Source of the DNA: a virus
Lineage: Duplodnaviria > Heunggongvirae > Uroviricota > Caudoviricetes
Virus record (IMG/VR): IMGVR_UViG_2671180846_000003
Span: 1-4,736 of that record
Length of the DNA stretch: 4,736 bases
Strand: one strand, 5' to 3'
In this document: piece after piece, positions 1,355-1,648 of the stretch
Layout of the letters: each line of letters opens with the position of its first letter
Position numbering within the stretch: position 1 is the stretch's first letter
Notes under the pieces: model-generated
Told to the model about the DNA's origin: nothing
The model's input: only the letters and a program-made list of their open reading frames with translations
Database searches by the model: none
Position numbers and translations under genes: made by a program

Positions 1355-1648
1355 ATGCCAGCGCCTCTGTATGGTGCGGATGACGCGCGCCGCTGTTCCG
1401 GCAATTCCGTATCGGAGGTGCTGGATAAATTCAGAAAAAACTACGATCGGATAATGTCGCTACCGCAGGAAACGAAAGAGGAAAAGGAATTTCGCCATTG
1501 TATATGGCTTGCAGAGAAAGAAGAACGCGAGCGAATTTACCAGACATCAATCCGACCATTCCGCAAAGCCACATATACCCACTTCCCTGAAATTGACCCG
1601 CGCCTGCGTAATTACCGCTCACGCTATGGCGCTATCAGTAATGACTGA
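1355..1648 (+). CDS. Hypothetical phage early protein, 97 aa
   Basis: ATG at 1355 with SD AAGGA at 1345-1349, 24 nt after the ssb stop. Charged, helical-looking sequence with no recognisable catalytic motif. Positionally equivalent to the abc genes downstream of erf in P22-like phages (inference only). Confidence 0.6.

Follow-up and report, generated by a model that had tools for sequence, protein, structure and literature searches.

Anti-RecBCD proteins and recombination modules of lambdoid phages

The structure of the Abc2 protein of phage P22 has been solved by cryo-EM on the RecBCD enzyme of E. coli (Wilkinson et al. 2022, eLife 11:e83409; PMC9836394). In this structure, residues 3 to 52 approximately form an extended helical structure lying on RecC's domains for Chi recognition (the "inactivated helicase" domains), and 15 residues in total make hydrogen bonds or salt bridges with RecC: A3, R13, C14, S15, G16, Y30, I33, M34, L36, E39, K41, K44, E45, R47 and H48 (PMC9836394, Figure 4-source data 1). 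In a subclass of the particles, the Abc2 helix reaches residue 66, the host protein PpiB is bound, and P68 was modelled into the active site of this isomerase (PMC9836394). P22 Abc2 does not block the binding and the unwinding of DNA by RecBCD (as summarised in PMC9836394), while the recombination that depends on RecBCD and the enzyme's response to Chi are abolished (PMC9836394). According to the summary given in the same paper, the exonuclease activity is left and the cutting of the 5' strand is up-regulated. As it is presented there, the working model of Murphy is that of a hijacked RecBCD in which the loading of RecA is swapped for the loading of Erf; the structure supports this model but does not prove it. 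The other Abc protein of P22, Abc1, aids the recombination of this phage.

Lambda Gam and T7 gp5.9 are, like Abc2, small early phage proteins which counter the threat of RecBCD to phage DNA. These two are acidic DNA mimics which sit on the RecB arm and on the DNA site and abolish all activities of the enzyme, whereas Abc2 is basic and bound to RecC. Abc2 (PF11043) was already catalogued across lambdoid prophages by Bobay et al. 2013 (PMC3784561), and a survey of lambdoid recombination modules (Genome Research 2025, PMC12315714) placed 27 of 325 lambdoid phages in a functional type named "HK75". All of this is published for the Abc2 family: how it sits on RecBCD, where it occurs among lambdoid phages and to which type of module it belongs (PMC9836394, PMC3784561, PMC12315714). 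The abc2 gene considered below is already known; it is intact and differs in nothing remarkable from the abc2 of P22, a gene which has been studied well.

The abc2 gene and its product

The window (the whole stretch of 4,736 nucleotides that we analysed) can be aligned along 99% of its length, with 99% identity, to the Stx1a-converting phages Stx1a_10051 and Stx1a_11KH263, and it is about 99% identical to prophages in the chromosomes of O26:H11-type STEC. All its substantial ORFs are on one strand. The features of its recombination module are collected in Table 1.

Table 1. Features of the recombination module in the window
Feature	Position	Strand	Evidence
Pair of small ORFs which overlap (83..241, 162..332)	83..332	+	PHROG 2123 and PHROG 1723, each with the label "recombinase"
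erf, Erf-family single-strand annealing protein	343..948	+	PF04404 ERF, E 2.1e-44; PHROG 155
HK97-gp40-type SSB-like protein ("SSB-1b"), 127 aa (putative)	948..1331	+	PHROG 44 ("single-strand DNA binding protein"), E 2.9e-27
Shine-Dalgarno-like AAGGA	1343..1347	+	7 nt 5' of the abc2 ATG; read from the sequence
abc2 CDS, anti-RecBCD protein 2, 97 aa	1355..1648	+	ORF list, PF11043, PHROG 656, PDB 8B1T/8B1U, alignment with P22 Abc2

The abc2 ORF begins with an ATG at 1355 and its stop codon is the TGA at 1646-1648 (ORF listing and sequence); it is separated by 23 nt from the stop of the upstream gene (1331) and by 10 nt from the following start (1659). The product has a mass of 11.6 kDa, 19 residues K or R against 16 residues D or E, a net charge of +3 and a pI of 8.97. 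The ORF listing and this composition agree with the initial annotation, which had described a charged ORF of 97 codons at this place. The match to a curated family over the whole length puts it far beyond a chance ORF, while an antisense ORF of 63 aa on the opposite strand (1431..1622) had no meaningful family match in Pfam or PHROGs.

When the protein was compared to Pfam, it matched PF11043 ("Bacteriophage P22, anti-RecBCD protein 2") with 209.6 bits and an E value of 5.6e-63, far above the curated cutoff of 25 bits, the residues 1-97 being aligned to the positions 1-97 of a profile of 97 positions. PHROG 656 ("abc2 anti-RecBCD") matched with an E value of 7.7e-55, and the search of PDB sequences returned a single match, "Anti-RecBCD protein 2" (8B1T/8B1U, chain A), with an E value of 2.8e-57 and with residues 1-97 of the one on residues 1-97 of the other. 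NCBIfam matched none of the ten proteins of the window; as the release has no model for the Abc2 family, this result carries no information. The abc2 product of the P22 record AF217253 is identical to the window protein at 90 of its 97 residues (92.8%). With tblastn, matches were found in 225 GenBank phage records, among which the "anti-RecBCD protein" of phage HF4s is 100% identical, the "abc2 anti-RecBCD" proteins of HK633, HK106 and HK542 are 98-99% identical, and ST104 and Stx2a phages make up a more distant clade at 60-67% identity. The Abc2 proteins of HK633, HK106, HK022, HK97, HK620 and HF4s taken together are 96-100% identical to that of the window.

From the position of the gene, the initial annotation had proposed a candidate RecBCD modulator of the Abc type, with a comparison to P22 Abc2 as the check and an uncharacterised early protein as the alternative. 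The comparison upholds the first proposal, with seven differences in 97 residues and a full-length match to PF11043, and the alternative can be dropped: judged by its sequence, the product of abc2 is a true orthologue of P22 Abc2 specifically, neither an Abc1 nor a Gam-like protein. In the early-left operons of lambdoid phages, the position of a gene can thus be a reliable guide to its function.

Conservation of the residues bound to RecC

The window protein and P22 Abc2 both have 97 residues, and their alignment (AF217253) shows the substitutions P11A, L32R, A65S, K76H, I78P, D86N and N97D. At the level of nucleotides, 26 of 291 sites differ, 17 of the changes being synonymous and 9 non-synonymous. 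The ratio dN/dS is 0.13 when the gene is compared to that of P22 and 0.23 when it is compared to that of ST104. Hence, the reading frame is under purifying selection.

Every one of the 15 published RecC-contact residues is identical in the two proteins. Pro68, the residue proposed to enter the active site of PpiB, is also present in the window protein, and it is kept in the six homologues that we compared (6/6), down to 33% identity. None of the seven substitutions falls on a RecC-contact residue or on P68. Two of them, P11A and L32R, are inside the segment bound to RecC (6-52) and outside the listed contacts, while the other five are in the C-terminal part (65-97), which is disordered in the structure of Abc2. 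Ala11 is common to the window protein and to HF4s; HK633 and the O26 strain FWSEC0001 carry Pro11.

We infer from the P22 data in PMC9836394 that the window Abc2 is able to bind the RecC of its host. The host of P22 is Salmonella, whereas that of the window prophage is E. coli; as the structure was obtained with the RecBCD of E. coli, the prediction is about as strong as a sequence alone permits.

The recombination module

One finds in the window, in this order, the small ORFs, erf, the SSB-like gene, abc2, a DUF2737 gene and then ea-type genes, the genes of the module being on the + strand; from the small ORFs to DUF2737 the gaps are never longer than 23 nt. The same gene order, including a gene annotated abc2, is found in HK633, HK97, HK022 and HK106. 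An early-left layout with erf, abc2 downstream of it and no exonuclease is also that of P22, HK633 and ST104. The gene therefore does occupy the position that had been noticed at first: like the P22 abc genes, it belongs to the early-left operon and comes downstream of erf. The Erf protein of the window shares 74.6% identity with P22 Erf across 205 aa, and Erf is the recombinase which Abc2 is thought to serve. The two small ORFs, candidate genes which are in different frames and overlap by 80 nt, lie upstream of erf where P22 has arf, and both are annotated in HK633; the comparison of P22 Arf to the window gave nothing more than a 7-residue match (SDEEFI, E 1.1), which is not significant.

No nuclease family was found among the ten ORFs of the window with Pfam and PHROGs. 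The module, made of an anti-RecBCD protein, an SSB and a single-strand annealing protein (SAP) and devoid of nuclease, matches the published HK75 functional type. The phages HK633, HK106, HK022, HK97, HK620 and HF4s, whose class of module is described in PMC12315714, share with the window the order erf, gp40-type SSB, abc2, DUF2737, and they differ from it essentially only by the broken DUF2737 of the window and by the Ala11/Pro11 variation. In a consensus scan, the sites resembling promoters or terminators were fewer in the window than in shuffled controls, a scarcity which fits read-through transcription of an early operon but does not prove it. The Chi sequence (GCTGGTGG) has no occurrence in the window, where 0.13 is expected by chance, a number too small to be informative.

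The start of the SSB-like gene overlaps the stop of erf, exactly as the start of abc1 does in P22 and ST104. This means that the SSB-like gene replaces abc1. It had been taken initially for an ssb inserted between erf and the abc gene; in fact it fills the abc1 slot, and Abc1 is absent from the whole window (the best tblastn match of P22 Abc1 has an E value of 0.9). The SSB-like protein itself gave no BLASTP alignment with P22 Abc1 at E<=100. Hutinet et al. 2018 (PMC5928155) noticed that in HK620 the Abc2 (94% identical) adjoins a phage SSB mis-annotated as abc1.

The SSB-like protein is 94.5% identical to HK97 Gp40, which was named SSB-1b because its fold is predicted to be SSB-like (PMC12315714); according to the same paper, SSB-1b proteins of the gp40 type have had no experimental study. 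Its C-terminus, ...DDSIPF, resembles the tail of E. coli SSB, quoted as DDDIPF (PMC5928155). It had no Pfam match even at E 10, and its best match among PDB sequences was a chance one (E 0.57). The putative assignment of this protein to the SSBs thus comes from PHROG 44 and from the fold prediction published for HK97 gp40.

The most distant Abc2 homologue that we saw, at 33% identity and with P68 kept, is in the Flyfo siphovirus Tbat2_3 (L006, 895..2809), in a module which comprises an ERF, an SSB, an RNase T-like 3' exonuclease and a DUF2856/Abc2 protein. Abc2-like proteins therefore also occur beside a phage nuclease, unlike those of the P22 and HK75 types.

A proposed mechanism

We are highly confident that the gene is the abc2 of a lambdoid prophage of E. 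coli of the Stx1a/O26 type, and that its product is a close orthologue of P22 Abc2 with the same role, a hijack of RecBCD through RecC and PpiB which makes the enzyme blind to Chi. For the window protein, the homology, the conservation of the contact residues, the purifying selection and the context of the module are observed directly. The binding to RecC, the blindness to Chi and the recruitment of PpiB are carried over from the literature on P22 Abc2, and should be read as predictions by analogy. Two points speak against the analogy: the window lacks Abc1, an aid to recombination in P22, and P11A and L32R fall within the segment which holds RecC.

The gene, erf and the SSB-like gene would be transcribed as one early-left (pL) operon. 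By homology to P22 Abc2, the helical N-terminal part of the protein (about residues 3 to 52) would bind the domains with which the host RecC recognises Chi, and Pro68 would engage the host prolyl isomerase PpiB. RecBCD bound to Abc2 would keep its helicase and its nuclease running while no longer responding to Chi, in contrast to the block exerted by lambda Gam. The resected single-stranded DNA would then be passed to Erf and not to RecA, probably with the help of the phage SSB-like protein; this loading of Erf by RecBCD-Abc2 is hypothetical even for P22, and so is any role of the SSB-like protein in it. If RecBCD is hijacked for resection, it would explain why the module has no exonuclease of its own. 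Such a hijack through RecC, blind to Chi and feeding Erf, is the most likely mechanism by analogy with P22, over a blocking of the Gam kind. It can be expected that the plating of T4 gene 2 mutants would be negative or weak for Abc2, because this assay reports the inhibition of the exonuclease, an activity which Abc2 leaves in place.

Other readings of the gene

One can notice that the differences from P22 are gathered in the C-terminal part of the protein: residues 65-97 carry five of the seven. The residues S65, H76, P78, N86 and D97 are common to the copies of HK633, HK106 and HF4s, all of which stand beside an SSB-like gene, while A65, K76 and I78 are common to P22 and ST104, both of which carry abc1. 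The specificity for partners may therefore have shifted, the tail coupling RecBCD to the phage SSB and Erf in a way unlike that of P22, in the modules where the SSB-like protein replaces Abc1. We consider this unlikely. The correlation comes from a handful of close relatives and may reflect nothing but the E. coli and Salmonella lineages; moreover, the Abc2 of HK620 was without effect on recombineering with Sak4 (PMC5928155), and the tail has no established role even in P22 (PMC9836394). It is quite improbable, in particular, that the tail (S65/H76/P78/N86/D97, against A65/K76/I78/D86/N97 in P22) co-evolved with the gp40-type SSB-like protein so as to give a hand-off of single-stranded DNA to the SSB/Erf pair unlike the Abc1-assisted route of P22. 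If it were true, this co-evolution would be a new variant of the hijacking of RecBCD in Shiga-toxin prophages.

The prophage shows several signs of decay: the neighbouring DUF2737 gene is broken by a nonsense codon (GAA>TAA), an IS600 element has split the DUF4752 gene near position 4677, 3 kb downstream, and an internal stop is present in the integrase of a near-identical O26:H11 prophage. As a nonsense codon and IS600 lie near abc2, its expression in this prophage is not guaranteed, and the gene could be an intact-looking remnant which has fallen silent. We hold this to be very unlikely. The ORF is of full length and has a ribosome binding site, its product is identical to that of HF4s, an isolated phage, and sequenced Stx1a-converting phages as well as HK633 carry copies with 99% identity. 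Its substitutions are mostly synonymous, and the partner genes erf and ssb-like are intact.

We give almost no credence to a Gam-like DNA mimic which would occupy the DNA-binding site of RecBCD and shut all its activities: a small protein of the early-left operon, in a slot for the control of host nucleases, would suit it, but PF11043 is the only Pfam match at E<=0.01 (the comparison to lambda Gam that had been suggested at the outset thus came out negative, no Gam family being matched), the protein has no sequence relationship to Gam or gp5.9, it is basic where these mimics are highly acidic, and its orthologue leaves the helicase uninhibited and binds a surface of RecC which is distant from the site where DNA enters (PMC9836394). 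We thus return to the hijack of RecBCD through RecC as the preferred reading of this abc2 gene.

Distribution of abc2 and the downstream region

The DNA of abc2 (294 nt) is present in 1101 of 5426 complete genomes of E. coli, that is about a fifth of them. Several STEC strains of O26 and O103 carry a copy with 100% identity, the product of which RefSeq names "phage anti-RecBCD protein". With this analysis the annotation of the window is completed: it holds an Erf/SSB-1b/Abc2 recombination module, from a prophage of the Stx1a type. Such modules affect the replication of phages and, potentially, the propagation of toxin phages and mosaicism in STEC.

Downstream of abc2, the homologue of the DUF2737 / P22-ORF56 gene (1659..1823) differs from that of HK633 by the change GAA>TAA, which places a stop at 1743-1745 and leaves an ORF of 28 aa; the same gene is marked "internal stop" by RefSeq in O26:H11 FWSEC0001. 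At the other end, the similarity to phage records stops at 4676, and the last 60 bases of the window (4677..4736) belong to one end of an IS600 element, the transposase CDS of which starts 4 nt past the end of the window in the matching O26 chromosome. IS600 truncates the DUF4752 gene (from 4464), and this chromosome is annotated with two pseudogene fragments flanking the insertion.

Finally we must note that the region 1820..3072 contains an intact ORF of 195 aa (PHROG 614, nearly full length) and an Ead/Ea22-like ORF of 222 aa, while in the 98.8% identical prophage of O26:H11 FWSEC0001 the matching region is given by PGAP only as partial pseudogene fragments. This difference points to mosaic genes of the ea region being handled inconsistently by annotation pipelines.
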